A stretch of 32,000 nt of DNA from Candidatus Iainarchaeum sp. (GTDB taxonomy: Archaea; Iainarchaeota; Iainarchaeia; Iainarchaeales; JAZDEL01), in contig JAZDEL010000010.1 in assembly GCA_043808785.1 (NCBI GenBank), positions 120,001 to 152,000 of the forward strand, read 5' to 3'. Both the position numbers and the translations under genes were made by a program. Below are positions 4,797-25,784 of the stretch, in pieces; positions within the stretch are counted from its first letter, which is position 1, and each line of letters begins with the position of its first letter. The notes below the pieces were generated by a model. That model was not told the origin of the DNA and did no database searches. It saw only the letters and a program-made list of their open reading frames with translations.

Positions 4797-7700
4797 CTTG
4801 CAATCTCCCCCCTGAACCTGTCATTTGTGTAATTCTGCTGGATAAAATCCACGCCTTCCGGCAAGGTAAACCAGATGGTAACCGTATATCTGTACTTACC
4901 GGAAAGATTCCCCCCCAGTATGTCGACTGAAAAATGTTTGGCCTCGCCCGGCGCCAGCGATATTGCCACGTTTTCTTCCCCCTCAATTTTAGTGGAAACC
5001 ATGACCGTAACATACCCCAATGTTACAACAGCATCTTTATTCCCGATATTCATTATGTCAAATGTTACGGAATCCCCCGAAATTCCAGGATTTTTTATGG
5101 CAAGGTCCGGGGCTTCGGAATAAAGCCCTATGTCAAAATCGTAATCCGTGAATCCTGAGTCGTTTGCGGTTGTGAAATACTCTTTTCCATACTCGTCAAG
5201 TTTTGAAACCCACAAATATTTCCTGCCTTCGGCGAGTTCGTGGTCAATCTGCCAGCCTTTCGAAACCGCAACAGGCTCGAAATCCTGCGGCGCCTCAAGC
5301 CTTGCAGTAAAGTTTTCGTTCCCCCCTACATCGGATGCCGTGGTGAAATAGCGCGGCTCTTTGCACTGGTCTGGGTAATACTCGCAGAGTTCGGCTATGT
5401 TTTGGGGCAGGTCCATCCGCATTGCGGGAACAGTTAGCCTGTAGTTTTTGCCGCCGCTTGCGTCGCTTATAAACTCCATGCGCGCTTCAGGCAAAGTGTG
5501 AACCGTTCTCAGCTTAATTGTAGGATCGCCGATTAGGAGGAACCATGCCGAATAATTGTCCTCAATAGTGCTGTCCCCAAGCGTTGCGGCATCCAGGACG
5601 ATTCCCGCGTTTTTTGAATTCCTGAATGCCTCCCCTATGGTCGAGCCGTTTGCAAAAATCTCTACAACCTGCCCCTGCATGTTCACCCCGCCCGAGCTGT
5701 CTGTTGCGCCTATGTAGCCTATCGCGCCCTGCCTTATTGCGTTCGCACAAAAGCTGCCTTTGATGAAAGAATATTTAAATGCGCAAGTTGCGCAAGCGCT
5801 TGTTGTTATGAAGGAGTTGTCCAGATAAGGTATCTCATTTGAGTATATGCCCGCCCAGGAGAGGTCGCCGTGGTCCTTGTAGGCCACGAAAAATTTATCC
5901 TTCCAGTGCTCCGGCTTCATCGGGGGGTCGGATGTGCCCGGGCTTCCTATGCCTTCAGGTATTGCAGTCGCGGCATATCCTGCAGATGACATTACTTTCC
6001 CGAAGGCGTATACATCCGCAGGGGCGTCTCCGCATGCCCTGCCCATTGTGATAAGTTGGTTCTCCTCGCTTTGCAGTGTTTCATCGTAAAACATGCTTCT
6101 CGCAACATATGCGGACGTGTCGGCCACGGTCACGCCGAAAATCCTGCCGACAGCAAGGTCAAGGAGCGGGTCGCCGTCATTGGTTTTTGAATAAAACCAC
6201 GCATCCGCGGCATAATACTCGGGAACATAGCCGCCGTTGCTGCCGTCATAATCCATATCTATTGCGTTGGGGCTTACCACTATGGTGAGATATTCAAAAT
6301 CCGACCCCAGCGCCCCTATTGAGGAGTCTATGAAATAATCCACGTTCATATAGTTGCTTAAGCGTGTGCTCAATATCAGTTCGTGTTTTGCGGACGCCAG
6401 GAAGGGCGCGGCAAGGGAGTTCCTGCTGTAAATTTCGTAGATGTAGGTGTTGCCATATGTGCCGTAGCCATCGGAATCGCCGAGGGCTTCTTTAATGTTC
6501 AGGTCATCCGGGTTTACAAGGATTAGTTTATTTGTGTTTGTCAGTTCCGCATATTTTTTCTGCATCTCCTCGATGGAGTATTGCTCGCTTCCCTTCGCAT
6601 CCGAGTTGATATAGTTTTGGGTTGCCGAATCCAGCCCGCCAACAATTATAACGTGCCTGCCGCCGATAACGTTCTTGTACTCATCCAGATTGCCCCCGTT
6701 CACAAAAATTACGGGGGCATTGAGGTATGAGGCATAAACCGAGGCAAGCAGTGCAGCCTCATAATCGTCATAATCAGCGAGCACTACAGTATCAAAAGCC
6801 TTCCAGTATGAGAAATAATCCGCAGGCGAGATTCTTTGCACCTGCCCTTCCGTAAGCCCTGCGCCGTACTCCGACTCCAGCAGCAGGAGATTATCGAGGT
6901 CTTGCGAGGTTTCGCCGACTATTGTGAGCCTTTGGGGCGGGTATTGCCTCATAAAATGCAGGGCTGATTCCGCGTCAAATGCTTCCGGCTCCTGATGGTA
7001 AATCATGGCTGGGTTTTTGTGCACTTCCTCCCCTTCCGTCCAGATTGATACTGGCACAAGCTGCAGAACATCGTGCCAGTCAGCATCGGAAACAAGGAAC
7101 ACTTCCTTCTCAGAATATTTGCTCATCAGTTTTTCGTTGTGTCCCGTTTCCCCGCCGCCGCCCGTGTATTCCCCCTCTCCAAAAATAAGATAGCCGCCAT
7201 CAGGGAAAGTGCACAGCGCATCAACGCTGTCCATTCTCCCGTTGAAAAATCCGACATTATCGATGCTTGCGCGGTTGTAGTGCAGTGTCCCGCCTTTTGA
7301 AAACCATATGTCAAGTTCGCGGTTGTCGTTCACAAGCCAGATAAACTGGTTATTGCCTGCGGCATCCTTGTAGAATGTTACCGCATCCGCAGAGGATGGG
7401 CATTTCTCCAAGCCCGCGCACTGTGCTGCGGCAATTTCGCTTATATTATAGGGCGTGTCGCTGATTTTGCCGTCCTTTATTATCCATGCCTTGCTGCCGG
7501 ATGTTATTTCATATCCATTAATGGAAGGAACATACGTGAAAGCATCTATCGGGCCGTCTATCTGCGGATAGAGTTTGGAAATAAGCCCCTGCTCCCAGCG
7601 CCTCTGCCCGATGTTCCAGCCGAAAACAGTATCTGTGCTGTTTTCAAAGTATAGCATGTATGTGGGGGTCAGGGCGCATGCATCAATTTTGTTTGGCGTG

Positions 7701-7843
7701 TTCTCTTTCAGCCCTACCGCATAAAAAAGGTCGTGCGTGTTCGGCGCCTGCACCTCTCCCTTATATGCCACAACCTGTTCGGCAAATGCGGGCGATGCAA
7801 AGAGAATGAAAAATGCAAAAAGCGCGAGCGCACAGCGGTTCAT
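4793..7843 (-). CDS. Cassette 1, gene 2: large secreted multidomain protein with C25-like (clan CD) cysteine peptidase core
   Basis: Signal peptide ending AFA-EQ, then four ~50-aa repeats opening with IDAC/IDAF/ADAV/VDAL (hemopexin-like). Two alpha/beta modules follow that resemble CWB2-type repeats (VVLADYDDYEAALLASVYASYLNAPVIFV...VIIVGG). C25-like signatures: DAWFYSKTNDGDPLLDLAVGRIFGVT, putative His in YKDHGD (5870-5872), putative Cys in TTSACATC (5792-5794), and GAIGYIGATDSS. The C-terminus has a CARDB-like module (APDLAIKNPGISGDSVTFDIMNIGNKDAVV). No C-terminal anchor. Confidence 0.8.
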   Translation of the reverse strand: MNRCALALFAFFILFASPAFAEQVVAYKGEVQAPNTHDLFYAVGLKENTPNKIDACALTPTYMLYFENSTDTVFGWNIGQRRWEQGLISKLYPQIDGPIDAFTYVPSINGYEITSGSKAWIIKDGKISDTPYNISEIAAAQCAGLEKCPSSADAVTFYKDAAGNNQFIWLVNDNRELDIWFSKGGTLHYNRASIDNVGFFNGRMDSVDALCTFPDGGYLIFGEGEYTGGGGETGHNEKLMSKYSEKEVFLVSDADWHDVLQLVPVSIWTEGEEVHKNPAMIYHQEPEAFDAESALHFMRQYPPQRLTIVGETSQDLDNLLLLESEYGAGLTEGQVQRISPADYFSYWKAFDTVVLADYDDYEAALLASVYASYLNAPVIFVNGGNLDEYKNVIGGRHVIIVGGLDSATQNYINSDAKGSEQYSIEEMQKKYAELTNTNKLILVNPDDLNIKEALGDSDGYGTYGNTYIYEIYSRNSLAAPFLASAKHELILSTRLSNYMNVDYFIDSSIGALGSDFEYLTIVVSPNAIDMDYDGSNGGYVPEYYAADAWFYSKTNDGDPLLDLAVGRIFGVTVADTSAYVARSMFYDETLQSEENQLITMGRACGDAPADVYAFGKVMSSAGYAATAIPEGIGSPGTSDPPMKPEHWKDKFFVAYKDHGDLSWAGIYSNEIPYLDNSFITTSACATCAFKYSFIKGSFCANAIRQGAIGYIGATDSSGGVNMQGQVVEIFANGSTIGEAFRNSKNAGIVLDAATLGDSTIEDNYSAWFLLIGDPTIKLRTVHTLPEARMEFISDASGGKNYRLTVPAMRMDLPQNIAELCEYYPDQCKEPRYFTTASDVGGNENFTARLEAPQDFEPVAVSKGWQIDHELAEGRKYLWVSKLDEYGKEYFTTANDSGFTDYDFDIGLYSEAPDLAIKNPGISGDSVTFDIMNIGNKDAVVTLGYVTVMVSTKIEGEENVAISLAPGEAKHFSVDILGGNLSGKYRYTVTIWFTLPEGVDFIQQNYTNDRFRGEIAR

Positions 7844-8298
7844 TGCGTTTTCACCTCATAAAAAGCTTCTATGAAATAGTCCCCGCCCTGATTGAATGTG
7901 AATGATGCACTGCTGCCTCCGTTCCCCCCGCCGTTGCCGTTTCCGTTGCCCGAACCGCCATCGCCGTTTCCGCTGCCGTTCCCGGTCCCGTCTGAGACGC
8001 CGCCTGCAGGTGGCGTAAATACTCCTGTAGCGAGCCCGCTCAGGTCCGCAGTTACTGTCGGCGCGCCGATTTTTCCCGCATCAAGTTTGGCAACAGTTCC
8101 AGGCCCGCCAAGCGCAATGCCTGCCTCCTCCTTAATCTTCGCAACCCCGCCCTCGGCAGCGGCATTAACCTCGCTCCCCGCACTTTTCGAGGTCTGCATA
8201 ATAAGAAGTATCGCAATCACGGCAACAAGCACAACCCCGCCTATGAGAAGCAGGTATTCCATCGAGCCTTGGGCGCGGCTGTTTCTGGCTTGTGGCAT
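7840..8298 (-). CDS. Cassette 1, gene 1: archaeal type IV pilin-like protein with class III signal peptide
   Basis: MPQARNSRA-QGSMEYLLLIGGVVLVAVIAILLI. Cleavage before QGSMEY would leave Q+1 and E+5 ahead of the hydrophobic helix. A Gly/Asn-rich low-complexity tract lies near the C-terminus. The track start at 8316 is a TTG; the ATG at 8296-8298 fits the TATA spacing. The stop overlaps the next gene start (7840-7843). Confidence 0.8.
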   Translation of the reverse strand: MPQARNSRAQGSMEYLLLIGGVVLVAVIAILLIMQTSKSAGSEVNAAAEGGVAKIKEEAGIALGGPGTVAKLDAGKIGAPTVTADLSGLATGVFTPPAGGVSDGTGNGSGNGDGGSGNGNGNGGGNGGSSASFTFNQGGDYFIEAFYEVKTQ

Positions 8299-8322
8299 TC
8301 GATAATAGTAACGCAAAGGTTG

Positions 8323-8355: not shown

Positions 8356-11300
8356 CTAGGGCTCTTCAATCTTGGCATTACCTTTCCCCGCAGCCTCCCC
8401 GTTCTCCCTTGCGGCAACCCTCATCAGCCCTTCGGTTTCCCCCTGCCTTAACCTTAACCCGACAACGGAGCTCTTCTGCTTGTTTAATGTAACTCCCACC
8501 AACTGGTCCGCCTCCGAAATTATCGTGTCGTTGTGCGTGATGCTTATGAACTGCGAGCGCCTGCTCATCTGCCCTATCATCCTGCCGAGTTTCAGCGAGT
8601 TGTCCTTGTCGAGCGCTGCATCAACCTCGTCAAATATGTAGAATGGCGCCGTCTCAAACGACTGTATCGCAAACAAAAACGCAAGCGCTGCAAGGCTTTT
8701 CTCCCCCCCGCTCATTGCATCTATGCTCTTCAGTTTCTCCCCCTTGTATTTTGCCTCTATTGTAAGCCCCCCTTCAAGAGGGTTCACGCTGTCCGTAAGC
8801 CCCAATCTCCCTTCCCCCTCGAAGAAAAGGCTGTAAAGTTCCATGAACTTGTTGTTTATCCTTGCGAAGCAGTCCGTGAAAACCTGGTTCTTTTTCACGT
8901 CTATTTTGTCTATCATTTCAACAACAGCAAGCCTTTCCTCGTCCAGCTTTTTCGCCCTCTCCCTGAGGTCGACAACCTCGTTCCTGTACGAATCGAAGTT
9001 TTCAGTTGCCTTCATGTTTATCGCGCCGAGCGCCTTTATTTCCCGCTCTATAGAGGGTATGCGCTCCCTTAATTTCGGCACGCTGAACTCCTTCAGCAGC
9101 TTCTCCCCCTTGTGCTGTTCGAACTCCAATTCCATGTCCGCAATCCTCACATCATTTTTGGATTGTGAAAGGTTCAGTTCATTTATCTCCCTGCCGAGCC
9201 TTTCCGCCTTTGCCTCGGCCTCGTCCCTCTTCAGGCCGATGTTTGAAATCCTGTTCGTTATCCTGCCCTTCTCCTCCTCGAACATCCTTGTCTCTTTCCT
9301 CGCTTTCTCAAGTTCCGCATCCTTCTTTGCAAGTTCCTCCTCGAGTTTCTTGAGTCCGTGCCTCTGCGCATCCGCAAACGCGGAGCCCTTGCTGTTCAGT
9401 TCCCCGGCTTTTTCCATCTCCGCCTCGGTTTCCGCCTTCGAGGCTGCCGCAGACTCCAGCCACGCCTCCAGTTTTGCCGCCTTGTTCTGCAGTTCGGATT
9501 TTTGCGCGTTCGCGCTTTCAATCCTCCCTATAAGCCCCGACATTTCCGTGTTTTCCTCGCTCTTCCTGAACGCCTCCACCTTTTTCGCGAGCGCGGACAT
9601 GGTTGCCTCCGCCGCAACAACGGATTTCTCCGCAGCGCCCTTCTCCGCAAGCGCGGCATTAACCCCCGCCTGCAGAGCCTTCAGGTCAATTCCCGCAGCA
9701 GCCCTCTCAACATCCCTGAGCGCGTTCCTCGAGCGCTCCAATCCCGCGGCTTCAGCAACCGCGGCCCTTTCCTCGTGCAGGAGTTCCTCCAGTTTTTCGC
9801 GCTCCTTTGAGAGTTTTTCGCGCTCTGCCGCTCTCGCCTCCGCTTCCGCGCCAACTTTTGTCAGCAGCGCCGCCTTCTTCTTCGAAATCGCCTCCTTAAG
9901 TTTCTCGCCCAGTTCCCTGTCGCACACGGGGCAGTTCTTCTGCGCGATTTTCAGTTCCCTTATCTCGTCCTCGAGCACCCTTTTGGCGTTCTTTGCCCCG
10001 TGCAATGCATCAATTGCGGCTTCAAGCGCCTTGTGATTGTCCCTTGCCTTGCCCTCAATTTTCATTTCCCGAAGTTCGGCAATCCTTTTCTCAGTGCGCT
10101 CCAGCTTTTTCACGTCCGCGGAAAGCGCATCTTCCCGCTTTTTCAGTTCCGCAAGCCTTGATTTCGCGGTTTCAAGCGCGTGCCTCATCTTGCCAACTTC
10201 GGCATCAAGCCTGTAAATCTCGCCCTTAATTTTCCCCGCCCTCTCCCTCGCCTCCTCCAGCGCCTTCTCGTCCTCCGCCGCTTTTGCGCCCGCAGCGGAA
10301 ACCTTCCCGGATTTCTTCCCGATTATCCTGTTCAGTTCCGCAAGCTGCGCATCCATCTCCTTTAATTTGTCCCTTGCGCCCCTGAGCGCCTCCTCCTTTT
10401 CCCTTGTGCCGTCAATAAGCCCCTTCCTTTTCTCCTTCAATGCCTCAATCCTTGCGCGGTTCCTCGCAATCTCCTCCTCCTTTGCCGAAATCCTCTCCCT
10501 TGCAAGCCTGACCTCGGAGCGCTTTTCCTCCACGCCCTTCCCTATCTCCTCATAGGTTTTCTCGTTCGCCCTGAGAATGTTCTTTATTGTTTCATCAAGC
10601 TTCTTTTCAAGTTCCGCAACCTCCGCGCCCAAACCCGCCTTCTCCTTCCTTGCCCCTTCAAGTTCCGCAGCAAGCGCATCGCCCTTCTTTTTCGCGGATG
10701 CGAGTTCCGCGCGCACGCGAATTATTTCCGCATTCAGCAGCGTGGCCTTGCTCCTCCTCAGTTCCTCGTTCAGCGTGTTGTATTTCAGCACGGCCTCGCG
10801 CTCCTTCTCAAGTTCGGCAAGGTATTGCTCCCTTTCCCCGAGCACAATCATCGCGTCTTTAACCCGCCTGTCCACAGCCTCCAGCTTTTTGAGCGCCTCC
10901 TCCTTCTTTCCCTCGAATTCCGAAAGCCCCGCCATATCATCGATTATTTTCCTGCGCTCCTTTGCGCTCATCTCTATTACCCTTGTGATATCCCCCTGCA
11001 CAACGATGTTCTGCCCCGTGGCCTTTATCCCGAGTTCAAGAAGCAGGGTTGTTACCTCATTCAGGCTGCGCTTCTTGCCGTCGAGCAGCATCACGGAGCG
11101 GCCTTCCTTGTCTATCTTCCTTGAAATGACATACGTCTTTTCCCCGCCCTGCAGTTCCAGCTCGACCTTCGCATACGGCTCATCGGCATCGTGGTTCACG
11201 AGGTCAGTGAGCTTTGAAGCGCGCAGCATTTTAAGCGAGGTTATGCCGAACGCGAAAAGTATCGCATCAACCAGGTTGGATTTTCCCGAGGCATTGGAGC

Positions 11301-11391
11301 CCGCTATGGCGGTGAAGCCCGAATGGAAGGGTATGTTCGCCTTCCTGAAGGACTTGAAGTTCTTCAGCCTCAGCCTGCCTATCCTTATCAA
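8356..11391 (-). CDS. SMC-superfamily ATPase: SMC-type head domains, long coiled coil, CPVC zinc-hook-like apex, no recognisable hinge
   Basis: N-head: FTAIAGSNASGKSNLVDAILFAFG...LRASKLTDLV...QGDITRVIEMSAKERRKIIDDMAGL. C-head: MSGGEKSLAALAFLFAIQ, FYIFDEVDAALD, QFISITHN. The E/K/A/R-rich coiled coil has CPVC at 9922-9933, close to the midpoint. The apparent start is a TTG at 11389-11391, with no in-frame ATG before the upstream stop. Confidence 0.85.
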   Translation of the reverse strand: MIRIGRLRLKNFKSFRKANIPFHSGFTAIAGSNASGKSNLVDAILFAFGITSLKMLRASKLTDLVNHDADEPYAKVELELQGGEKTYVISRKIDKEGRSVMLLDGKKRSLNEVTTLLLELGIKATGQNIVVQGDITRVIEMSAKERRKIIDDMAGLSEFEGKKEEALKKLEAVDRRVKDAMIVLGEREQYLAELEKEREAVLKYNTLNEELRRSKATLLNAEIIRVRAELASAKKKGDALAAELEGARKEKAGLGAEVAELEKKLDETIKNILRANEKTYEEIGKGVEEKRSEVRLARERISAKEEEIARNRARIEALKEKRKGLIDGTREKEEALRGARDKLKEMDAQLAELNRIIGKKSGKVSAAGAKAAEDEKALEEARERAGKIKGEIYRLDAEVGKMRHALETAKSRLAELKKREDALSADVKKLERTEKRIAELREMKIEGKARDNHKALEAAIDALHGAKNAKRVLEDEIRELKIAQKNCPVCDRELGEKLKEAISKKKAALLTKVGAEAEARAAEREKLSKEREKLEELLHEERAAVAEAAGLERSRNALRDVERAAAGIDLKALQAGVNAALAEKGAAEKSVVAAEATMSALAKKVEAFRKSEENTEMSGLIGRIESANAQKSELQNKAAKLEAWLESAAASKAETEAEMEKAGELNSKGSAFADAQRHGLKKLEEELAKKDAELEKARKETRMFEEEKGRITNRISNIGLKRDEAEAKAERLGREINELNLSQSKNDVRIADMELEFEQHKGEKLLKEFSVPKLRERIPSIEREIKALGAINMKATENFDSYRNEVVDLRERAKKLDEERLAVVEMIDKIDVKKNQVFTDCFARINNKFMELYSLFFEGEGRLGLTDSVNPLEGGLTIEAKYKGEKLKSIDAMSGGEKSLAALAFLFAIQSFETAPFYIFDEVDAALDKDNSLKLGRMIGQMSRRSQFISITHNDTIISEADQLVGVTLNKQKSSVVGLRLRQGETEGLMRVAARENGEAAGKGNAKIEEP

Positions 11392-11555
11392 AAAGAGCCC
11401 CCCGCACCCGATGGTTCCCCCGCCCTAAATGCCCTTATCAAAAAAATCCCCCGCAATCATAAACAACCGTGGATAGGTTTTTAAGGGTTTTAAGGGTGAA
11501 GGCGGCGTGCGTTTTTAGGGTTTTTAAGCGTGCGGGCGTTTCTGCTGCGGGCTGT

Positions 11556-15267: not shown

Positions 15268-16182
15268 TCAAGCCTCCATTTGCCTTGGTTTGTAGAATTT
15301 AAAATAAGCAATAAGCATCAGCGCAAGCAGCACAGCTGCTCCGCCAAAAACCAGAAGCCAGTCAATGCCCGCAGGTTCGGCTACGGGCTCGCCCAGCGCT
15401 GGCTGTGCAGCAGCCCCTGCGAATGGGCAATCCTGCGGGCAGTTCTGCGCATTTTCCCCAACATCGCAAACATGGTTGCCGTTGCACCTTGAGACTGAGG
15501 GAATTTCGGCGTGCTTTTCGATTACTGCGAACTGCGCGGTTTTCCGCATCGTTTTGTAGCCCTCCTTTTTTGCTGTTGCCCTTAATTCATAGCTGCCCGG
15601 CCCCAGTTCATCTGCAGCAATTGAACCAGGCAGGCCTATCGTTTTTGTTGTTCCGTCCGGCAAAACAAGTTCGGCACTTACTGCAGGCTCTGCGGTTTCA
15701 GATTCAAAACCGAAATAGATCGTTTCACTTGGCGTGAAAAAGCCTGATTTGCCGTTGCAGCCCTGGTCTGCGCAAGAGAAGATTTCAAACCTGAAACTTG
15801 GGTTGGTTTCAATCCTGAATTTCTTTTCCCCCCTTGCCTGTTCGGGGCTCTTAACGTCCACAGAGGCCGTGCATTCCTGGGGCTCTAGGGAACCGTCCAC
15901 CTCAATGCCTGAATAGGTGCCTGAATATGCCTTCCCCGCGATTAAGGCTGCAGTTTCCTCATTCAGGGGGGCATTCGGGGCGTTCGGGCACTCGACATGC
16001 GGGACAAAAACAATCCCTGTTCCGTAGTCCGAGGAAATTGAATAATCAAAGGAGATTTTCTCGCCGCTGGAGAACGAATCCGCGACATTAATCGCCACAT
16101 CTATCCCTGCACTTGCTGATGGCACAAATAAAAGCGCCGCGAGCAAAGCAAAAATGCCCTTTGCCAGTTTGCTGTGTTTCAT
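15268..16182 (-). CDS. Cassette 2, gene 3: paralogue of 3900..4796 (anchored Ig-like protein)
   Basis: Collinear with the cassette 1 protein: same signal peptide, same CNGNHVCDVGENAQNCPQDCP module and a TM tail. The extreme C-terminus differs (FYKPRQMEA). The stop lies 2 nt before the downstream COG2403 gene start. Confidence 0.8.
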   Translation of the reverse strand: MKHSKLAKGIFALLAALLFVPSASAGIDVAINVADSFSSGEKISFDYSISSDYGTGIVFVPHVECPNAPNAPLNEETAALIAGKAYSGTYSGIEVDGSLEPQECTASVDVKSPEQARGEKKFRIETNPSFRFEIFSCADQGCNGKSGFFTPSETIYFGFESETAEPAVSAELVLPDGTTKTIGLPGSIAADELGPGSYELRATAKKEGYKTMRKTAQFAVIEKHAEIPSVSRCNGNHVCDVGENAQNCPQDCPFAGAAAQPALGEPVAEPAGIDWLLVFGGAAVLLALMLIAYFKFYKPRQMEA

Positions 16183-19100
16183 CTTGCAATCTCCCCCCTG
16201 AACATGTCATTCGTGTAGTTCTGCTGGATGAAATCCACGCCTTCCTGCAAGGTAAACCCGATGTTAACCATATACTTGTCCTTGCCGGCAAGATTCCCCC
16301 CCAATATGTCTACTGAAAAGTGTTTAGCCTGGCCCGGCGCCAGTGATATCCCCACATTTTCCTCCCCCCCAGTTTTAGCAGAAACCATGACCGTAACATA
16401 CTCCAATGTTACAACCGCATCTTTATTCCCGATATTCGTTATATCAAAGGTTACCGAGTCCCCCGAGATTCCGGGATTTTTTATGGCAAGGTCCGGGGCT
16501 TCGGAATAAAGTTCTATATCAAAATCGTAATCCGTGAATCCGGAGTCGTTTGCGGTTGTGAAATACTCTTTTCCATACTCATCGAGTTTTGAAACCCACA
16601 AATATTTCCTTCCTTGGCCGTATTCATGGTCAATCTGCCAGCCTTTTGAAACCGCAACAGGCTCGAAATCCTGCGGCGCTTCAAGCCTTGCCGTAAAGTT
16701 TTTGTTCCCCCCGGCAGCGGATGCCGTGGTGAAATAGAGCGGCTCCTTGCACTGGTTTGGGTAATACTCGCAGAGTTCGGCTATGTTTTCGGGTATGTCA
16801 ATCCGCATTGCAGGAACGGTTATCCCGTAGTTTCCGCCGCCACTTGCCTCGCTTATGAATTCCATGCGCGCTTTGGGGAGGGTGTGCGCCGTTCTCACCT
16901 TCATTGTAGGGTCGCCGATGAGGAGATACCATCCCGAAGAATTGTCCTCAATGTTGCCTTGCGTAAGCGTTGCAGCGTCCAGGACGATTCCCGCGTTTTT
17001 TGAATTCCTGAATGCCTCCCCCGTGGTCGAGCCGTTTGCAAAAATCTCGGCAATCTGCCCATCCATGTTCACCCCGCCCGAGCTGTCCGTTGCGCCTATG
17101 AAGCCTATCGCACCCTGCCTTATTGCGTTCGCGCAAAAGCTGTATTTGAAATAATACTTAAACGTGCATGTCAGGCAGGCCATCGTAGTTATGAATGAGT
17201 TGTCCAGATAAGGAATCTCATGCGCATCTATGCCTGCCCACGTGGTGCCGCCATGGTCCCTGTAAATTGTGAAAAATTTATCCTTCCAATGTTCCGGCTT
17301 CATATGGGGGTTAAGCATATTGGGGCCTTCACCTTCAGGTATTACAACCGTGGCATATCCTGCGGAAGACATTACTTTCCCGAAGGCATATACTTCCGCA
17401 GGGGCGGTTTGGTCTGTCCTGCCCATCGTAATAAGCATGCTCTCCTCGTTTTGCAGTGTTTCATCGTAAAACATGCTTCTCACAACGTATGCTGACGTGT
17501 CAGCCACGGTCACGCCGAAAATCCTGCCGACAGCAAGGTCAAGGAGCGGGTCACCATCCTTGGTTTTTGAATAAAACCACGCATCCGCAGCATAATAGTC
17601 GCCGCCCTCGTCCAAATAATCCATGCCTATTGCATTTGGGCTTGCAACTATGGTAAGATATTCAACGTCCGCACCCAGCGCCTCTATTGAGGAGTCTATG
17701 AAGGCATCCACATCCATATAGTTGGCCGAGCGCGTGCTTAATATCAGCTCGTGTTTTGCGGATGCCAGGAATGGCGCGGCAAGGGAGTTCCTGCCGTAAA
17801 TTTCGTAGACGTGGATGTGGCTATATATGCCGTAGCCGTCGTAATCATCCAGCACTTCCTTGATGTCCAGGTCGTCGGGATTTACGAGGATTAGTTTATT
17901 CGTGTTTGTCAGCTCCGCATATTTTTTCTGCATCTGTTCAAGTGAATATTGCTCCGCCCCAGCTGAGTTCGAGTTGATGTAGCTTTGGGTCGCAGAATCC
18001 GCCTGGCCGACAATTATAACATGCCTGCCGCCGATAACATTCTTGTATTCATCCAGATTGCCCCCATTCACGAAAATTAGGGGCGCATTGATGTATGAGG
18101 CATAAGCCGAGGCAAGCAGTGCAGCCTCATAATTGTCATAATCGGTGAGCACGACAGTATCAAAAGCCTTCCAGTATGCGAAGTAATCCGCAGGCGAGAT
18201 TCTCTGCACCTGCCCTTCCGTGAGCCTTGCGCCGTACTCCGAATCCAGCATCAGGAGATTGTCCAGGTCTTGCGGGGTTTCCCCGGCTATTGTGAGCCTT
18301 TGGGGCGGGTATTGCCTCATGAAATACATGGCTGATTCCGCGTCAAATGATTCATAGCATTGGACTTCCTTGTCTTCGCTTATTTTTAGCCCGAACTCAA
18401 AAGTTTCCCCTTCGGGCGCCGCCCTGTTTATGTTTTCAATTTTTCCGTCCGCCGGATTTGTGAATTGGATGAAGTCCGGCTTTTCCGTTATTTCAATTGA
18501 TTTCACAACCGCCCCAGTAGTGATTTTAATGCTGAGGGTTACTTCATCGCCTGGCTTCAAGTTAGCAAACTTGCTGAACGTTCCGGTTTCATACCAGTTG
18601 GCATCTGCAGGCTCGACAGTGACCTTTGCCCCGATGGGGTCTTTGAAGCCCTTCTGCCAATCCGAACCTGTCCAATGTCCGATATATGTGAGGTCAAGGT
18701 CGGTGCTCCTGCACGGCTCCTGATGGTAAATCAGGGCGGGGTTTTTGTGCACCTCTCCCCCTTCTGTCCAGATTGATACAGGCACAAGCTGCAAAACATC
18801 GTGCCAGTCCGCGTCAGAAACAAGGAAAACCTCCTTGTCAGAATATTTGCTCATCAGTTTTTCGTTAGGCCCGATTTCCCAGCCGCCGCTGCCCGTGTAT
18901 TCCCCCTCCCCGAAAATAAGATAGCCGCCATCAGGGAAAGTGCACAGCGCATCAACGCTGTCCATTCTCCCCTTGAAGAATCCGACATTATCGATGCTTG
19001 CGTGGTTGTAGTGCAGCGCCCCGCCTTTTGAAAACCATATGTCGAGTTCGCGGTTGCCGTTCACAAGCCAGATAAACTGGTTATTGCCTGCGGAATCCTT

Positions 19101-19574
19101 GTAGAATGTTACCGCATCCCCCGAGGAGGGGCATTTCTCAAGCCCTGCGCACTGCTCCGCCGCAATTTCGCTTATGTTATATGGCGTGTCGCTGATTTTG
19201 CCGTCCTTTAGCACCCACGCCTTATTGCCCGAAGTTATTTCATAAATGTTTGACGAGGGAATGTACGTGAAAGCATCTATCGGGCCGTCTATCTGCGGGT
19301 AGAGTTCCGAAATCAGCCCCTGCTCCCAGCGCTTCTGCCTGATGTTCCAGCCGAAAACAGTATCTGTGCTGTTTTCAAAGTAGAGCATGTATGTGGGGGT
19401 CAGGGCACATGCATCAATTTTGTTTGGCGTGTTTTCTGTAAGCCCAACGGAATAAAACAAATCGTGCGTGTTCAGTGCCTGCACCTCGCCCTTGAATGAA
19501 ACAACCTGCTCGGCAAATGCGTAAGATGAAAACGCAAGGGCAAATGCCAAAAGCGCAAGCGCAAAGCGGTTCAT
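16179..19574 (-). CDS. Cassette 2, gene 2: paralogue of 4793..7843 with an extra ~120-aa inserted module
   Basis: Same domain order as cassette 1. Putative His in YRDHGG (17253-17255) and Cys in TTMACLTC (17175-17177). The insertion is bracketed by Cys residues, between LIYHQEP and SFDAES (about 18354-18713). Confidence 0.8.
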   Translation of the reverse strand: MNRFALALLAFALAFSSYAFAEQVVSFKGEVQALNTHDLFYSVGLTENTPNKIDACALTPTYMLYFENSTDTVFGWNIRQKRWEQGLISELYPQIDGPIDAFTYIPSSNIYEITSGNKAWVLKDGKISDTPYNISEIAAEQCAGLEKCPSSGDAVTFYKDSAGNNQFIWLVNGNRELDIWFSKGGALHYNHASIDNVGFFKGRMDSVDALCTFPDGGYLIFGEGEYTGSGGWEIGPNEKLMSKYSDKEVFLVSDADWHDVLQLVPVSIWTEGGEVHKNPALIYHQEPCRSTDLDLTYIGHWTGSDWQKGFKDPIGAKVTVEPADANWYETGTFSKFANLKPGDEVTLSIKITTGAVVKSIEITEKPDFIQFTNPADGKIENINRAAPEGETFEFGLKISEDKEVQCYESFDAESAMYFMRQYPPQRLTIAGETPQDLDNLLMLDSEYGARLTEGQVQRISPADYFAYWKAFDTVVLTDYDNYEAALLASAYASYINAPLIFVNGGNLDEYKNVIGGRHVIIVGQADSATQSYINSNSAGAEQYSLEQMQKKYAELTNTNKLILVNPDDLDIKEVLDDYDGYGIYSHIHVYEIYGRNSLAAPFLASAKHELILSTRSANYMDVDAFIDSSIEALGADVEYLTIVASPNAIGMDYLDEGGDYYAADAWFYSKTKDGDPLLDLAVGRIFGVTVADTSAYVVRSMFYDETLQNEESMLITMGRTDQTAPAEVYAFGKVMSSAGYATVVIPEGEGPNMLNPHMKPEHWKDKFFTIYRDHGGTTWAGIDAHEIPYLDNSFITTMACLTCTFKYYFKYSFCANAIRQGAIGFIGATDSSGGVNMDGQIAEIFANGSTTGEAFRNSKNAGIVLDAATLTQGNIEDNSSGWYLLIGDPTMKVRTAHTLPKARMEFISEASGGGNYGITVPAMRIDIPENIAELCEYYPNQCKEPLYFTTASAAGGNKNFTARLEAPQDFEPVAVSKGWQIDHEYGQGRKYLWVSKLDEYGKEYFTTANDSGFTDYDFDIELYSEAPDLAIKNPGISGDSVTFDITNIGNKDAVVTLEYVTVMVSAKTGGEENVGISLAPGQAKHFSVDILGGNLAGKDKYMVNIGFTLQEGVDFIQQNYTNDMFRGEIAR

Positions 19575-20020
19575 TGCGCTTTCACCGCCTGCAATTCGTT
19601 CTTCACATCCCCCCCGCCCTGATAGAAAGTGAAGGTTGCGCTTCCGCCGCCATCGGGGGGCACTATGCCGCCATTCCCCCCGCCGCCAGCGCCGCTGCTC
19701 GGCGGCGCGAGTATTCCTGTAGCAAGCCCGCTCAAATCCGCGGTTGTTGTCGGCGCGCCGATATTTCCCGCATAAAGTTTGGCAACAGTTCCAGGCCCGC
19801 CAAGCGCAATGCCTGCTTCTTCCTTAATCTTCACCATTCCCCCCTCCGCGGTTGCATTAACCTCGCCCCCCGCGCTTTTCGAGGTCTGCATAATAAGAAG
19901 TATCACAATCACGGCGACAAGCACAACCCCGCCTATGAGGAGGAGGTATTCCATCGAGCCCTGCCCTGCGGCTGCTTTGGTGGCATGCCTTTTTTCATTC
20001 GGGCTTTTTTGCGCGGGCAT
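19571..20020 (-). CDS. Cassette 2, gene 1: pilin-like protein with class III signal peptide
   Basis: MPAQKSPNEKRHATKAAAG-QGSMEYLLLIGGVVLVAVIVILLI, giving G at -1, Q at +1 and E at +5. The Gly-rich tract differs from copy 1. The ATG is at 20018-20020. Confidence 0.8.
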   Translation of the reverse strand: MPAQKSPNEKRHATKAAAGQGSMEYLLLIGGVVLVAVIVILLIMQTSKSAGGEVNATAEGGMVKIKEEAGIALGGPGTVAKLYAGNIGAPTTTADLSGLATGILAPPSSGAGGGGNGGIVPPDGGGSATFTFYQGGGDVKNELQAVKAQ

Positions 20021-21268: not shown

Positions 21269-21434
21269 TGCAGCCATAGTCTAGTGGCAGGATTCGAGCT
21301 TCCCAAATCAGGGCCCTTCGGGTCCCGATACCCCCAAAGGGAACGGAACCTTCGGGTTCCGCGCCCCAAAGGTTCGGGTTGATGAGGGGTTGATGGTTCA
21401 AGCTCGCGACCCGGGTTCGAATCCCGGTGGCTGC
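21269..21434 (+). tRNA. tRNA-Gly(CCC) with a ~95-nt intron at the canonical 37/38 position
   Basis: Manual fold: acceptor GCAGCCA/TGGCTGC, D-stem GTCT/GGAT, anticodon stem CGAGC (21294-21298)/GCTCG (21401-21405), loop TT-CCC-A[intron 21305-21399]A, T-arm CCGGG-TTCGAAT-CCCGG, discriminator A. The mature length is 71 nt. Confidence 0.8.
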
Positions 21435-21601
21435 ATTCAACCGATAGTAATGTGCATCTCCATTTATGGCATTGTTCATGCCGGAATCGGTGCATTTTTT
21501 GATTGCACTTATAATGCCCAAACTGCTTAATTAAGTTTTTGGTTTTTGGCCAGTAACCTTGCGCGAAAATAACTATTTTATGCTTATCTGCCCCTATCTT
21601 T

Positions 21602-22192
21602 ATGATGCCCGAACCGCCTAAGTACCATCCAAAATATGTCCCTGTTAAGGGGCGCAAACGGCCTCCTTGGCTTGAGGAGCTCGAGAGGGAGAAAAGATAC
21701 ATTCACTGGGAGGGTGTGTCGAATTATGACCTGAGGCAACCTCTCGGATGGAGAGGCTTCTTAAATTTAATAAGCCGGCACAGCCTCTTGGAGTCAAATC
21801 AAGGGCATGCCGAGGCAATGTCAATTGCAAGGTCAAAGGCTAAGCCCGATTTCTTCCACGACGATTTTCCCGTGTGCACTACTGAAAGGTTCAAAACCCC
21901 TGACTTGAGGACAAGCCCGGGGCATGTGCTTTGGGGAATAATATTCATGGAGAAAGTCCCTGAAAAATTCAGGCAAATCGTCCTTGACCACGAGGCGAAA
22001 GTCGCAGAATTGTTTTCGCGCAATGAGCCGACAAAAAGGTCAAACCCCGACTTCAGGGAGTTCTGCGACAATGAACGGAAGTGGCTGGAGAAGCACGGCC
22101 TGCTGGCAGAATGGATTGGATGGGTGAAGAGGGATTACCCGCAGCTTTACAAAACCGCGCTTGAGCTGCGCGGGATTAAAGTTTCTAATTAA
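21602..22192 (+). CDS. Hypothetical protein (islet gene 1)
   Basis: 196-aa ORF with a TATA-like CTATTTTATG about 25 nt upstream. No family recognised by eye. Confidence 0.55.
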   Translation: MMPEPPKYHPKYVPVKGRKRPPWLEELEREKRYIHWEGVSNYDLRQPLGWRGFLNLISRHSLLESNQGHAEAMSIARSKAKPDFFHDDFPVCTTERFKTPDLRTSPGHVLWGIIFMEKVPEKFRQIVLDHEAKVAELFSRNEPTKRSNPDFREFCDNERKWLEKHGLLAEWIGWVKRDYPQLYKTALELRGIKVSN

Positions 22193-22259
22193 GCAGGCGC
22201 AACCGCATGCTGGAATGTCTGCGTGTCGGTGCGCGCTGATTTATTGCGGCTTAACTCTA

Positions 22260-22574
22260 TCATTTTTTCACTAATGGAGCAGGGTATTTCTTCGTGAACC
22301 CCTCTCTTATTTTAGCTATTGCCCCATTTAGGGATAGTTTACCGGGGAATACCTTGTGCTTTATGAATTGCTGCCTGAAAAACTCCAACCCGCCCTCTCT
22401 TTCCTCAGGGCTGCCAGCAGCCATGTCAATCTGCCGCCCCAACTCTACAGGATGGTCAAAAGCCAACTTCATAAGTGCGCCGCGCGGGTTCTTCCTAGCC
22501 TTCACACCTATCGTATGCATCCAATTAGGCTCTCTTGTTTTTCCATACATTGGTTTCTTTTCAAGCATACGCAT
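22260..22574 (-). CDS. Hypothetical protein (islet gene 2)
   Basis: 104-aa ORF with GTATATAAAC at 22591-22600 just upstream on the coding strand. The start could be the ATG at 22574 or the one at 22568. Confidence 0.5.
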   Translation of the reverse strand: MRMLEKKPMYGKTREPNWMHTIGVKARKNPRGALMKLAFDHPVELGRQIDMAAGSPEEREGGLEFFRQQFIKHKVFPGKLSLNGAIAKIREGFTKKYPAPLVKK

Positions 22575-22792
22575 ATTATATCCCTAGGGCGTATATAAAC
22601 CTTCTCAGTTACTGTAAAAACTTGCCGCCTCCGCACTAATGAATGTTTTGTTGGCGCACCCTTTGTGGAACGGAAAAACAAGCCAAATTGAGTTAGATTT
22701 CTAACTCTCGGGCATGCAGAGAACGCTTTCAGCCGAAACGGAGCCCGCTCCTGCCTTTTCGTTTCCTATGGATTCTGTCCCGCAGCCTGGCG

Positions 22793-23326
22793 TCAGTTCC
22801 AGTGCCATGCACCGAGCTTTTGCAGGGCGTTGTCATCGTGAACCAGGACAAACCCGAACTGCTGTTCAAGCTCCTGCAGCAAAACGCCGAAATGGTCGTC
22901 AGTTGTCACGAAGAAAAGGTTCGGCAGCGTAAGTGCCTGCGCCAAAATCTCCATGTCCGACTTCTCAGGCAGGGCCGAGGCGCGGTTTTTCTTCTTCATC
23001 AACTCAATCAATCGATTGTCACTCCCGTAGTTCCTGAAGAATGTTTCAACTGCCTGCAGGTGCTCATTTGTAAGGTCTTGATGTATTTTCATGGCACATA
23101 GCAGTTTATTCAATTTCCTTTCGGCGGTGGCTAAAATCCGTCCTATTTCCAAAGGGTTGTGCCCCTTTGCTTTAAGTTCGGGCAAGAATAGGTCAAGATT
23201 AACCTGTTTGTAAACACGCTGCGAACTGTGCAATGGCAATTTCCTGTCTTGGCACTTCACTATGAACTCCCTTATGCAGGTTGCCCTTGTAGGGCAACGC
23301 TCTTTCGGGAGTACCGCAGCTTTCAC
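22793..23326 (-). CDS. PIN-like domain protein (putative toxin/nuclease), tentative
   Basis: The C-terminal SDMEILAQALTLPNLFFVTTDDHFGVL matches the D-x-x-I-x-A-x-A ... T-x-D-x-x-F end of PIN domains, and NLDLFLPEL may carry the first acidic residue. The only start in frame is a GTG at 23326, 23 nt after the upstream stop. Confidence 0.45.
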   Translation of the reverse strand: MKAAVLPKERCPTRATCIREFIVKCQDRKLPLHSSQRVYKQVNLDLFLPELKAKGHNPLEIGRILATAERKLNKLLCAMKIHQDLTNEHLQAVETFFRNYGSDNRLIELMKKKNRASALPEKSDMEILAQALTLPNLFFVTTDDHFGVLLQELEQQFGFVLVHDDNALQKLGAWHWN

Positions 23327-23349
23327 ATAGTTGAGGATGGAGCTCGTTT

Positions 23350-24189
23350 CTAGGAAGATAGTGGAATCTCCATCTGGGCAATTGTTTTGAATAGACGTTC
23401 TCTGGCCTCCTTTGGAATGTCGCTGAAATCGTCATCGGCTATGGAGCGGAATATGCCTTCTTTCTCGCAGTAGTTGTCCAGATATTCAAACAGTTCCGTA
23501 GCGTAGCCGTCCGCCATACATTTGTTCCCCTTCAGCGCGCCAAATAGTTCATCAATAGTGCAAATAACCTGCCCCCTCTTCACAGGGTCTGAGACATCCT
23601 TCAATTTTTTTAATATTTCCCCGACATGGTGCAAGTACCCAAGCATACAGTATAACCTGTCCTCGTCTTCAGGTGACGACCCGTTCCCGATATTTTTGCC
23701 GACCAAATCGCGGTAAATTGGCAGGTTGCTCTCAATCCTCCCGATAGATTCAAGTGTCTTTGATTTGCTCCTGAATGTGTCCACATATGTCTTGTGCACA
23801 AAGTCGAGAATCTCAGTGGCATTCTTGTCTTTGTATTTGTTAATTATTTTTTCGGCCTTTTTTCTCTCATCATCATTGATTAGGGGCTCGCAAATATTGC
23901 GGAAATAGCGCTTGCCCTCCGGCGTTAACCGAATAGTGTAGCGGCTGTGAGGCCCTGCCGAACAAAGTTCCTCCTGCAATAATCCATTAGCGATGCAGAA
24001 ATTAACCGAAATATAATCGACTGGCCCGAATTTATAATTGGATATCGGGCTGTCATATTTAACATGCCCCTCCCCTTCAATGAGATAATGGATTTTATAT
24101 AGTTTTATTCTGCCATCTACCTTCCCCAATCTATCTAAGATAAACAGAAGCAATTGGATATTTTTATTGGGCTTTTCAAGGTCTGCCAT
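23350..24189 (-). CDS. Panacea (DUF4065/SocA)-like or wHTH N-domain protein with helical C-domain (putative antitoxin/sensor), tentative
   Basis: RIKLYKIHYLIEGEGHVKYDSPISNYKFGPVDYISVNF resembles the KLqKLlY...GPv core of Panacea domains. It is followed by GLLQEE...YTIRLTPEGKRYF (wing-like) and about 170 aa of helical sequence. Confidence 0.45.
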   Translation of the reverse strand: MADLEKPNKNIQLLLFILDRLGKVDGRIKLYKIHYLIEGEGHVKYDSPISNYKFGPVDYISVNFCIANGLLQEELCSAGPHSRYTIRLTPEGKRYFRNICEPLINDDERKKAEKIINKYKDKNATEILDFVHKTYVDTFRSKSKTLESIGRIESNLPIYRDLVGKNIGNGSSPEDEDRLYCMLGYLHHVGEILKKLKDVSDPVKRGQVICTIDELFGALKGNKCMADGYATELFEYLDNYCEKEGIFRSIADDDFSDIPKEARERLFKTIAQMEIPLSS

Positions 24190-24372
24190 CGTACCCCTCG
24201 CGGAAGTCGCTAGAAGTAACCGCTAAGTAGTATAATAATAATAACGTTTGCCCGCAGAAAGAATAAAAATGAATGTTTGTTATGTATAAATAACTATTGA
24301 TTATGTAGCTGCCTATTTTGTCTGCTCCCTTTCCTGCCTTTGAAATTCACAGGAAACTCGGTGGCTGCACAC

Positions 24373-24399
24373 CAACTTTTCTTTAAGAAAGAAAAGTTG
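24373..24399. repeat. Perfect 12-bp stem hairpin
   Basis: CAACTTTTCTTT-AAG-AAAGAAAAGTTG. Confidence 0.6.
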
Positions 24400-24441
24400 A
24401 CAAAAGAAACACAAGGCACGGTTGACAAAAAGAAGGATTTT

Positions 24442-24501
24442 CGCTCCGCGAAAATCACGCTCCGCGAAAATCGCGCTGCACGAAATCACGCCGCACTGAA
24501 C
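24442..24501. repeat. Decaying tandem repeat of a ~16-nt unit
   Basis: CGCTCCGCGAAAATCA, CGCTCCGCGAAAATCG, CGCTGCACGAAATCA, CGCCGCACTGAAC. It sits in the 3' flank of the 419-aa gene. The first unit also forms the hairpin ATTTTCGC-TCC-GCGAAAAT. Confidence 0.6.
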
Positions 24502-24524
24502 CCGCGCCGCCCGGATGGCGCCTC

Positions 24525-25784
24525 TCACACAAGCCTCTCCGCAAGCTCGGGGTTCAGCCTTGCTGCTGCGAGCGCAAGGCGCTCCGTGCACATGGAAATG
24601 CCGCTGTTCTCCAGCGCGGTTGCTGCATCTGAAATAAGCGCCGCTGCTTCCCCCTTTCCCAGGCCGTGCGCAAGCGCTGAAAGCTCCGCCATTGTTTCAA
24701 GGATGAGTTCCCTCTTGGCTTTGCCGCCCTCCCTGCACCAGAGCGGCATCATGTCGTGGAAAAGCACGCCCTGATTTGCAAGCACTTCCTCCTTGAATGC
24801 CGAATCCTTGCTCCTTGCGATTTCCCTCAGTTTTTCGGGGTAAATCGGCGAAACAGGAGAGGCTGCGAGGATTATTTTTTTGTTCGCATCCCTTATGTAG
24901 CTCATTGCCTTCTTCACATCGCCCTTTCGCACGAGTTCCGCTGCCTTGCCGACAATTATCCCCGCCTGGCTGAAGGGCTTGAGGCGCAGGGAGTAAAGCC
25001 TTTTCTGCGCTGTCCCGAGTTCCTTTGCAATGCGCTCCCTTGCCTTTACCTCGGTGCCTGCGGAAGCGAGGGCGTTAAAGTTCGCCAGCAGCGTATCCAG
25101 CGCGCCGAATATTCTCGTGTCCCGAACAAACTTCTTGTCCACGACAAGCTTGCGCCTTCTCTCAAGGAACTTCTGCTGGTTCCCGAGTTTCCTTAGCCAG
25201 TCGCCCATGTCGTTCCTGATTGCCTCGATAACCGCCGCCACAGCGCCTGCTTTTTCCACCTTCAGCAGTTCCGATGCCTGCCCGAACCTCTCGATTGCAC
25301 GTATCTTTTTCTCCTCCCTGAGCAGCAGGGGGTTTTTTGCAAGCCTGCCTGCAATGCCCGTGAAATACTCCCTGAAAGATTCCCTCTCGCCCTCCCCGAA
25401 TTTTTGCCAGCGGTTAACAAGGTCGAAATGCACGCTTGCAAGCTGGCCCTCAATCATCTCCGCCTGGTGAATCCTTGAGCCCACGCTTTCTATCTGGTGG
25501 AAGACCTGCCTCACGCCGTCCGAGATATTGTTGGCGTGCAGGAACCGCGCCACTCTGAGCTTTCCCTCCTTTCCGCCGTAAACGGGAATTTCCATTGTGC
25601 CGTCTGTGTGGAAGCGCACCTTGAGCCCCGAAAGCGGCTTGTCCCCCGCCGCGCTGAACCGAACCTGCGCGCCGCGCGGAACCTTCCCCCCTTCGGCAAT
25701 AATTTTGTTGTAATTTTCCTGCGAAAGCACAACATTTGCGCCGGGAATTTTTTTTCCGCCAGGCCTGTACCCGCCCTTAATCAT
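24525..25784 (-). CDS. Hypothetical, largely alpha-helical protein (419 aa)
   Basis: Long ORF 14 nt downstream of the membrane protein gene on the same strand. No motif recognised. Confidence 0.65.
   Translation of the reverse strand: MIKGGYRPGGKKIPGANVVLSQENYNKIIAEGGKVPRGAQVRFSAAGDKPLSGLKVRFHTDGTMEIPVYGGKEGKLRVARFLHANNISDGVRQVFHQIESVGSRIHQAEMIEGQLASVHFDLVNRWQKFGEGERESFREYFTGIAGRLAKNPLLLREEKKIRAIERFGQASELLKVEKAGAVAAVIEAIRNDMGDWLRKLGNQQKFLERRRKLVVDKKFVRDTRIFGALDTLLANFNALASAGTEVKARERIAKELGTAQKRLYSLRLKPFSQAGIIVGKAAELVRKGDVKKAMSYIRDANKKIILAASPVSPIYPEKLREIARSKDSAFKEEVLANQGVLFHDMMPLWCREGGKAKRELILETMAELSALAHGLGKGEAAALISDAATALENSGISMCTERLALAAARLNPELAERLV

Follow-up and report, generated by a model that had tools for sequence, protein, structure and literature searches.

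A low-GC islet with a Panacea–PIN gene pair at the 3' end of a tRNA-Gly(CCC) gene of Candidatus Iainarchaeum, a probable product of integration

A 2.9 kb islet of four genes (21436–24358), situated directly 3' of a tRNA-Gly(CCC) gene of Candidatus Iainarchaeum sp., probably arrived by tyrosine-recombinase integration into the 3' end of that tRNA gene through an 11-bp core, and is now without an integrase of its own. It lies in a 32,000-nucleotide stretch of contig JAZDEL010000010.1, referred to below as the window, whose numbering is used throughout (Table 1). The same reading had been put forward in an earlier note on this DNA, which saw in the locus an attachment (att)-site footprint of integration into a tRNA gene, and it is supported by a break of synteny at the direct repeat that closes the islet, by the deviating GC content, by the ORFan (an open reading frame, ORF, without relatives) and by the presence of the main cargo, a Panacea–PIN cassette resembling a toxin–antitoxin (TA) module, on an integrase-bearing element elsewhere. 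Under the proposed mechanism, an element-borne attP would have recombined with tRNA-Gly within the 11-bp core, leaving the tRNA intact (attL) and placing a partial copy of its 3' end at the far end of the insert (attR). The integrase for this step may have been a past or a borrowed one, of the type now found at the same core in a related strain, and the integrase-less remainder, plausibly retained by its TA pair, would be either a minimal satellite or the stump of an element whose recombination and replication modules were lost.

The 11-nt repeat and the break of synteny

The repeat, CGGTGGCTGCA, occurs exactly twice in the window, both times on the + strand: once as the last 11 nt of tRNA-Gly, where it ends on the discriminator base, and once at the far border of the islet. 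The earlier note had placed the first copy at 21424–21434, one nucleotide to the left of its actual position (21425–21435); its coordinates for the second copy (24359–24369) were correct, as was its count of 15 matches in 17 when the repeat is extended leftwards in the same orientation (21419–21435 versus 24353–24369). Its rough chance estimate of 0.01–0.02 also agrees with the value obtained from 100 dinucleotide shuffles, by which an exact second copy is expected 0.01 times per window on both strands, none of the shuffles reaching two matches. With one mismatch allowed the expectation rises to 0.83 per window, and a repeat finder returned many other imperfect repeats of 12–26 nt within the same 6 kb; taken on its own the 11-mer is one repeat among many, and it is meaningful because of its location.

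That location was assessed by comparison with L001, a 4.3 kb Logan contig that is the sole close relative in the data. L001 carries a 92%-identical ortholog of the 419-aa protein encoded to the right of the islet, a protein with ten relatives among 5.8 billion proteins, of which the others are 43–51% identical, the distant homologs being located in unrelated chromosomal contexts. Positions 1–1712 of L001 align with window positions 26096–24359 at 89% nucleotide identity (blastn), spanning the 3' end of an STT3-like gene, the 419-aa gene, intergenic repeats and a perfect palindrome, and then TGCAGCCACCG, the reverse complement of the 11-mer; in a pairwise alignment the homology stops at exactly that nucleotide, the inner edge of the second copy. 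The second 11-mer thus appears as the boundary between conserved chromosome and strain-specific DNA. A repeat lying off the point of synteny loss had been named beforehand as the outcome that would speak against integration, and this is not what was found, the L001 homology ending at 24359.

Beyond the core, L001 continues into unrelated DNA that has no match in the window and that encodes, 80 nt in, a 401-aa tyrosine recombinase, followed by small ORFs and a TrbC/type IV secretion system-pilin gene. The best NCBIfam match of the recombinase is archaeal XerA, at 102 bits; since this score lies below the equivalog cut-off, we label the protein only as an integrase of the XerA superfamily. Because the DNA of the L001 element is unrelated to the window yet starts at the same 11-mer, two different inserts abut the same core, and because the L001 synteny breaks there with an integrase gene beyond, the 11-mer would act as a recombination core used by at least two different elements. 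Both inserts share tRNA identity up to the same nucleotide, which suggests that their integrases had the same crossover specificity.

Composition changes along with synteny. GC content drops directly after tRNA-Gly and recovers at 24250–24500, around the second 11-mer, so that the transition from AT-rich to GC-richer sequence described at this point in the earlier note is borne out by the GC profile. The islet as a whole deviates from its host (46.1% GC versus 53.0% for the rest of the window) and lies below all 461 windows of the same length elsewhere (minimum 49.7%, mean 52.5%, standard deviation 2.1%). Tetranucleotide distance to the rest of the window peaks at the islet, with slightly higher values only at ~8500–11400, inside an SMC/Rad50-like gene. 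A coincidental repeat, in an ordinary chromosome with locally low GC and no insertion at all, could draw on the imperfect repeats and the one-mismatch expectation given above, but is very improbable, given an expectation of 0.01 for the exact 11-mer, its coincidence with the GC transition and its coincidence, to the nucleotide, with both the end of the 89% L001 alignment and the start of the integrase element there.

The four ORFs of the islet exist as first described, two of them without any family. Among 5.8 billion proteins the 196-aa protein matched only itself, IMG/VR scans with the 196-aa, 104-aa, Panacea and PIN proteins and with the L001 integrase returned nothing, and PADLOC and NCBIfam gave nothing meaningful on the islet proteins. 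The lack of an integrase noted earlier was confirmed by profiles and by tblastn: Phage_integrase had no match in the islet ORFs or in ORFs crossing the att sites, no integrase match was obtained among the window ORFs scanned against Pfam or NCBIfam, and in tblastn with three related archaeal integrases over the 32 kb window no match had an E value below 0.2. The idea of an SSV-type integrase gene split over the att sites was rejected, the ORFs crossing attL and attR having no family match. As it is without an integrase, the islet cannot move by itself, and it is for the same reason filed as a remnant or non-autonomous derivative rather than as a complete element; the original view that it is decayed or minimal is consistent with every search run.

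A related scheme treats the islet as a live non-autonomous element of the kind called cis-mobilisable (CIME), excised and integrated in trans by a co-resident L001-type integrase. Its two 11-bp cores are indeed intact and identical, a 7-bp inverted repeat, TTTCCTG...CAGGAAA (24330–24356), adjoins attR, and the insert is compact and dominated by a putatively self-stabilising TA cassette; yet no integrase of the L001 family lies within the 32 kb window, no second copy of the islet was found anywhere searched (protein and contig searches), and there is no sign of recent movement. An element that encodes an integrase does occupy this core in the related strain, and its inner boundary is identical, but the att-proximal DNA of the islet and of L001 has no sequence in common that would point to common arm sites, and we regard a live element of this kind as unlikely. 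Integration followed by loss, or arrival as a minimal satellite, is the reading retained here.

Table 1 Features of the islet and of its two borders, in window coordinates
Feature	Position	Strand	Basis or remarks
tRNA-Gly(CCC), probable integration target	21270–21435	+	Rfam RF00005, 46.8 bits; 98-nt insertion in anticodon loop
Putative attL core, last 11 nt of tRNA-Gly	21425–21435	+	T-stem 3' strand, acceptor 3' strand, discriminator A
196-aa ORFan	21602–22192	+	No Pfam, PHROG, NCBIfam or PADLOC match
104-aa basic ORF	22260–22574	-	No match in profile libraries (Pfam, PHROG, NCBIfam, PADLOC)
Conserved non-coding stretch 3' of PIN gene	22668–22766	-	Common to L009 (2411–2525); tblastx and alignment, ~100 nt
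PIN-fold nuclease gene, putative toxin	22793–23398	-	Family motifs, AF2 and Foldseek; mechanical ORF 177 aa, 22793–23326
279-aa Panacea (SocA/DUF4065)-domain protein, putative antitoxin	23350–24189	-	PF13274
AT-rich upstream region of Panacea–PIN operon	24190–24329	-	TATA-like boxes, GAGGGG before ATG; conserved with L009
Putative attR core, partial copy of tRNA-Gly 3' end	24359–24369	+	L001 homology stops at inner edge, 24359
Conserved chromosomal flank, outside islet	24370–25784	-	89% identical to L001; intergenic repeats, then 419-aa gene
419-aa conserved archaeal protein gene	24525–25784	-	Family in other archaeal contigs, chromosomal contexts

The tRNA-side boundary and the target gene

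When the islet is removed in silico, TTTTCTTT comes to lie 7 nt after tRNA-Gly, which would be a typical archaeal terminator context. The empty site is predicted to read ...GGTTCGAATCCCGGTGGCTGCA|CACCAACTTTTCTTT across the junction, with the flank CACCAACTTTTC expected directly after tRNA-Gly. In JGI metagenomes there was no match to the junction 25-mer (empty-site/attR, common to L001 and the window). Scanning GTDB with the 419-aa protein yielded no relative, and exact look-ups of the 419-aa, 279-aa and 195-aa window proteins found none of them on record. A tRNA 23-mer, searched in GTDB and JGI, was recovered only from distant lineages (L013–L016) and one unrelated contig (L017), none of them with the 419-aa flank. 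In the tRNA-matching lineages the tRNA lies within 1–2 kb of an ortholog (~50% identity) of the 297-aa gene that is the 5' neighbour of tRNA-Gly in the window; L013, L014 and L015 still have the two linked, and the DNA 3' of the tRNA is different in each, an FKBP-type gene beginning 5 nt past tRNA-Gly in L014. In L001, the site is occupied by the other, integrase-bearing element.

Several points weigh against integration as the origin of the islet. No empty site, with tRNA-Gly joined to the flank at 24370, was found in JGI metagenomes or GTDB genomes. The L001 contig ends before the tRNA, so that the left, tRNA-side boundary is placed by att logic alone, and a tandem arrangement is possible in the L001 strain. 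A core of 11 bp is short for archaeal tRNA-targeting elements. The GC shift is moderate and lies mostly in the Panacea gene (43.6% GC) and in intergenic DNA, the GC content at third codon positions (GC3) of the 196-aa and PIN genes being inside the host range. Profile and tblastn searches of the islet detected neither an integrase, whole or fragmentary, nor any recognisable gene for replication, conjugation or virions, and no similarity of its proteins to known viruses or IMG/VR contigs was found; the search for viral and plasmid relatives proposed in the earlier note thus came back negative for viruses and, for plasmids, yielded a single weak match of the Panacea domain.

Host-like GC3 values in the 196-aa and PIN genes and a tRNA-side boundary without comparative support would also suit an old local variable region, for defence or TA genes, that was never integrated; the 11-mer at 24359 would then be the scar of another element, and the L001 element would have entered either at this secondary site or at the tRNA. 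Such regions do collect TA modules and ORFans, and at one other locus (L011) the cassette stands among TA genes with no integrase among the called genes. Excision, however, would regenerate the original site, and no duplicated core would stay behind 2.9 kb from the tRNA; such a core enclosing foreign-looking DNA is what integration produces. As the GC drop also starts right after the tRNA and ends at the 11-mer, and the cassette can be seen to have moved between contexts (loci L009 and L010, below), we consider a resident variable region improbable and continue with integration at the tRNA 3' end as the preferred reading.

The tRNA-Gly gene was missed by ARAGORN. Comparison with a 71-nt tRNA-Gly without an intron in the metagenome contig L016, which its exons match almost completely, leads us to conclude that the gene has a 95-nt intron, at ~21306–21400 in the canonical 37/38 position, with ends ambiguous by 1–2 nt. 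Introns of tRNA-Gly(CCC) are mutually unrelated in three lineages whose exons are nearly identical (95 nt in the window, 126 nt in L013 and 86 nt in L014/L015; the genes lie at 4689–4885 on the minus strand of L013, 768–924 of L014, 3164–3320 of L015 and 157–227 of L016). L016 has the same flanks as L015 without the intron, a presence/absence polymorphism. The intron-containing copies of the window, L013 and L014, which are all those run, were each missed by ARAGORN. Within the window intron are two CCTTCGGG hairpins and a TGATGA motif.

The chromosomal flank on the other side of the islet is repetitive between the second 11-mer and the 419-aa gene. It holds a perfect palindrome with 12-nt arms at 24373–24399 (CAACTTTTCTTT/AAAGAAAAGTTG), three repeats of the GATTTTCGCG/CGCGAAAATC type at 24436–24513 and a duplicated GTTGACAAAAGAA motif, and over 24373–24513 (~1580–1700 in L001) the window has 25 nt that are absent from L001.

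The Panacea–PIN cassette and the start of its PIN gene

The main cargo of the islet is a two-gene operon in which the antitoxin-like gene comes first and the PIN gene, overlapping its 3' end, is seemingly translated from a weak ACG start. The first gene product matches PF13274 over residues 30–133 with 26.2 bits against a gathering cut-off of 25.7, a borderline score that nonetheless upholds the Panacea-like call made on first inspection. Two of four homologs also match PF13274, and the helical C-terminal half (~140 aa) has no domain assignment. A single-sequence AlphaFold2 (AF2) model was too poor to support a fold (predicted local distance difference test, pLDDT, of 50.5), and PDB sequence searches with the Panacea and PIN-like proteins were uninformative. 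A tblastn search with the protein gave no match among phages and, among plasmids, a weak one to a SocA-domain antitoxin gene from Halanaeroarchaeum.

The second gene belongs to a small family, with 26 representatives among 1.84 billion proteins, whose alignment shows the motifs xFL(D/E)TS in the first strand, SDMxI and TTDxHF. Of the acidic residues, the beta1 E/D (FLETS/FLDTS) is conserved, the D of SDM is invariant and the D of TTD is present in at least 90%. An AF2 model built on the family alignment, beta1 included, reached a pLDDT of 96.9 and a predicted TM-score (pTM) of 0.91, and the top PDB matches returned by Foldseek, at a probability of 1.00, were the PIN/VapC proteins PAE0151, AF0591, PAE2754 and Mycobacterium VapC (TM-scores of 0.52–0.65 normalised by target and 0.42–0.48 normalised by query). 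The window protein has no Pfam match with or without its N-terminal extension, single family members giving weak matches (~E 1e-3) to PIN, PIN_3, PIN_4 and NYN; as no curated sequence model matches, we call the protein PIN-fold and assign it to none of the named Pfam PIN families. The PIN-like call of the earlier note is thus backed by family motifs and predicted fold, and not by a Pfam sequence model.

Upstream region, Panacea gene and PIN gene together (22789–24329) align with positions 42–1586 of locus L009 at 73% identity over 1563 nt (blastn), and the DNA outside the cassette is unrelated between the two, except for the non-coding stretch of ~100 nt listed in Table 1. In the window this stretch follows the last gene of the TA operon, and in L009 it is separated from the PIN gene by two extra genes. 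A 26-nt block within it (22681–22706) is 96% identical to L009 (blastn) and contains a palindrome, AGTTAGA-AA-TCTAACT, followed by a T-run. No Rfam family was matched at gathering score, and the palindrome 17-mer occurs in IMG/VR about as often as expected by chance on a rough, uncomputed estimate. The stretch may act as a terminator, bind a protein or encode a small RNA.

A Panacea protein paired with a PIN-like gene also occurs in L009, L010, L011 and L018. Order and -1-frame relation, with the toxin ORF overlapping or abutting the 3' end of the antitoxin gene, are the same in the window, L009, L010 and L011, and the overlapping layout is found in L018/L019 as well. The module in L010 is more distant (Panacea-like protein ~29% and PIN-like protein ~23% identical to those of the window) and adjoins a 402-aa integrase that is 28% identical to that of L001 over 367 aa, including a CxxC...CxxC motif (E 8e-46); the block, which also contains a Prim-Pol/helicase gene, has 48% GC inside archaeal DNA of 63% GC. 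In L011 the cassette sits amid other TA genes, and none of the genes called there encodes an integrase. In view of the contexts in L009, L010 and L011, the main cargo of the islet would be of a kind carried by integrase-bearing archaeal elements, and judged from these neighbourhoods the cassette is demonstrably mobile between contexts.

The integrases of L001 (1793–2998) and L010 (8647–9855), together with one in L002 (14522–15736), form a family of archaeal tyrosine integrases of ~400 aa with 26–34% pairwise identity. Those of L001 and L010 have a C-terminal CxxC...CxxC tail resembling a zinc ribbon and stand at the edge of element-like DNA. No tRNA was found beside the L002 or L010 integrase, and a search for att-like direct repeats around these two gave none that was convincing.

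The start of the PIN gene is unusual. The mechanical ORF begins at a GTG at 23326, too late to include the conserved beta1 strand and its acidic residue (TIFLETSSILNY), the codons for which lie upstream of this GTG in the same frame. The in-frame upstream translation (...NNCPDGDSTIFLETSSILNY|VKAAV...) runs through the 23-nt 'intergenic' gap into the end of the Panacea gene, which it overlaps in the -1 frame, and no in-frame ATG, GTG or TTG that would include beta1 exists in the window, in L009 (65% identity) or in L018/L019 (45%). Between the window and L009, the eight codons of the gap differ by three synonymous and two conservative changes, which argues that they are being read. Full-length relatives have their Met1 exactly 13 residues ahead of the strand, and the codon at this position is ACG in the window (23398–23396), L009 and L018. 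A GGAGG or GGGGG motif precedes it at a distance of 7 nt (GGAGG at 23410–23406 in the window), which is also the spacing in the GGAGG-N7-ATG of L010. As side information, the regions concerned are 23326–23410 of the window (minus strand), ~960–1050 of L009 and ~90–170 of L018. The overlapping Panacea frame (R-E-R) also constrains the ACG, so that its conservation is by itself no proof of initiation; initiation at ACG, giving a weakly translated toxin, is our preferred explanation of this arrangement. Several database members of the PIN family are called truncated at '...NYVK' and may have the same start-codon problem. A programmed -1 frameshift fusing Panacea to PIN was set aside, as no slippery heptamer exists and relatives have homologous N-termini on free-standing proteins.

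Extended to the whole islet, the ACG start leads to a more elaborate proposal, namely a functional integrase-less satellite of tRNA-Gly-targeting elements, mobilised in trans via the 11-bp cores and kept by an under-translated Panacea–PIN addiction module; we give this as a tentative idea that we consider unlikely. The start codon itself has wider bearing. In three PIN toxin genes that have diverged from one another, ACG persists at the ancestral start behind a conserved motif resembling a Shine–Dalgarno sequence, which could make them a useful test case for non-canonical initiation in archaea, for the setting of toxin dosage and for gene callers that would systematically truncate this PIN family.

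Relation to known elements and chromosomal surroundings

The islet is a well-known kind of feature, in that tRNA genes are classic landing sites and small integrase-less remnants with TA modules and ORFans are common. It resembles archaeal elements targeted to tRNA genes by tyrosine integrases of the pNOB8 type or akin to XerA in being inserted directly 3' of an intact tRNA with a distal partial copy of the tRNA 3' end, in having GC content below that of the host, in its cargo of ORFans and a TA module, and in that a related strain has an integrase element at the same core. Unlike them it has no integrase or fragment of one, a core of only 11 bp, a length of only 2.9 kb and four genes. Integrase-less remnants of integrative elements that are rich in ORFans have been surveyed in archaea (Cortez et al. 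2009, PMC2718499). The islet proteins are dissimilar to those of described archaeal virus and plasmid families, save for the weak match of the Panacea protein to the Halanaeroarchaeum plasmid gene.

CIMEs are cis-mobilisable elements derived from integrative and conjugative elements and were described in Streptococcus. Like them, the islet lies between attL and attR without recombination or transfer genes, at a site where a relative has a complete element; it differs from them in its archaeal host and in that no tandem with a complete element was observed, and its mobilisation in trans would be hypothetical.

Panacea is an antitoxin domain that is paired with dozens of toxin types, RNases included, and that occurs in three archaeal phyla (Kurata et al. 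2022, PMC8832971). As in the PanAT systems, which combine a Panacea/DUF4065 antitoxin with diverse toxins, the Panacea protein of the islet is part of a conserved two-gene operon with a putative toxin. The partner differs from those of PanAT systems in being a PIN-fold protein of ~200 aa that is divergent, belongs to a small family and, in the window, has a sequence that matches no Pfam PIN model, and in its ORF, which overlaps the 3' end of the antitoxin gene and has ACG at the conserved start; toxicity and neutralisation are putative here. With the VapC/PIN ribonuclease toxins the partner has in common a predicted PIN fold, the conserved acidic residues (beta1 E/D, SDM, TTD) and a TA-like operon, from which it departs by helical insertions of ~60 aa, by a Panacea partner in place of a VapB-type antitoxin and by the lack of a canonical start codon.

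Within this familiar frame, the locus would single out tRNA-Gly(CCC) as a hot-spot of active integration in a little-known archaeal lineage and would define an unusually short core of 11 bp common to two unrelated inserts, and the comparison of loci documents a Panacea–PIN cassette that appears to move between archaeal mobile elements. The toxin with its apparent ACG start and the variable long intron of tRNA-Gly may be added as curiosities.

Near both ends of the islet there is, in addition, a direct repeat of 26 nt (73% identity) starting with AAATAACTATT, at 21567–21592 and 24288–24313. One copy stands just 5' of the 196-aa gene and the other upstream of the Panacea operon, on the opposite strand relative to the operon; the repeat may be due to chance or may be a common promoter-like element.

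The window around the islet is archaeal chromosome, with genes for an H+-pyrophosphatase, an SMC/Rad50-like protein and two class III signal-peptide (archaeal pilin-type) proteins, besides large C25-peptidase-like proteins, an STT3 homolog and ThiI. Two of the C25-peptidase-like proteins are very large (1016 and 1131 aa; 4793–7843 and 16179–19574, minus strand), and their genes adjoin those of the class III signal-peptide (pilin-like) proteins at 7840–8316 and 19571–20020, so that these neighbours look like paired surface-protein/pilin modules.

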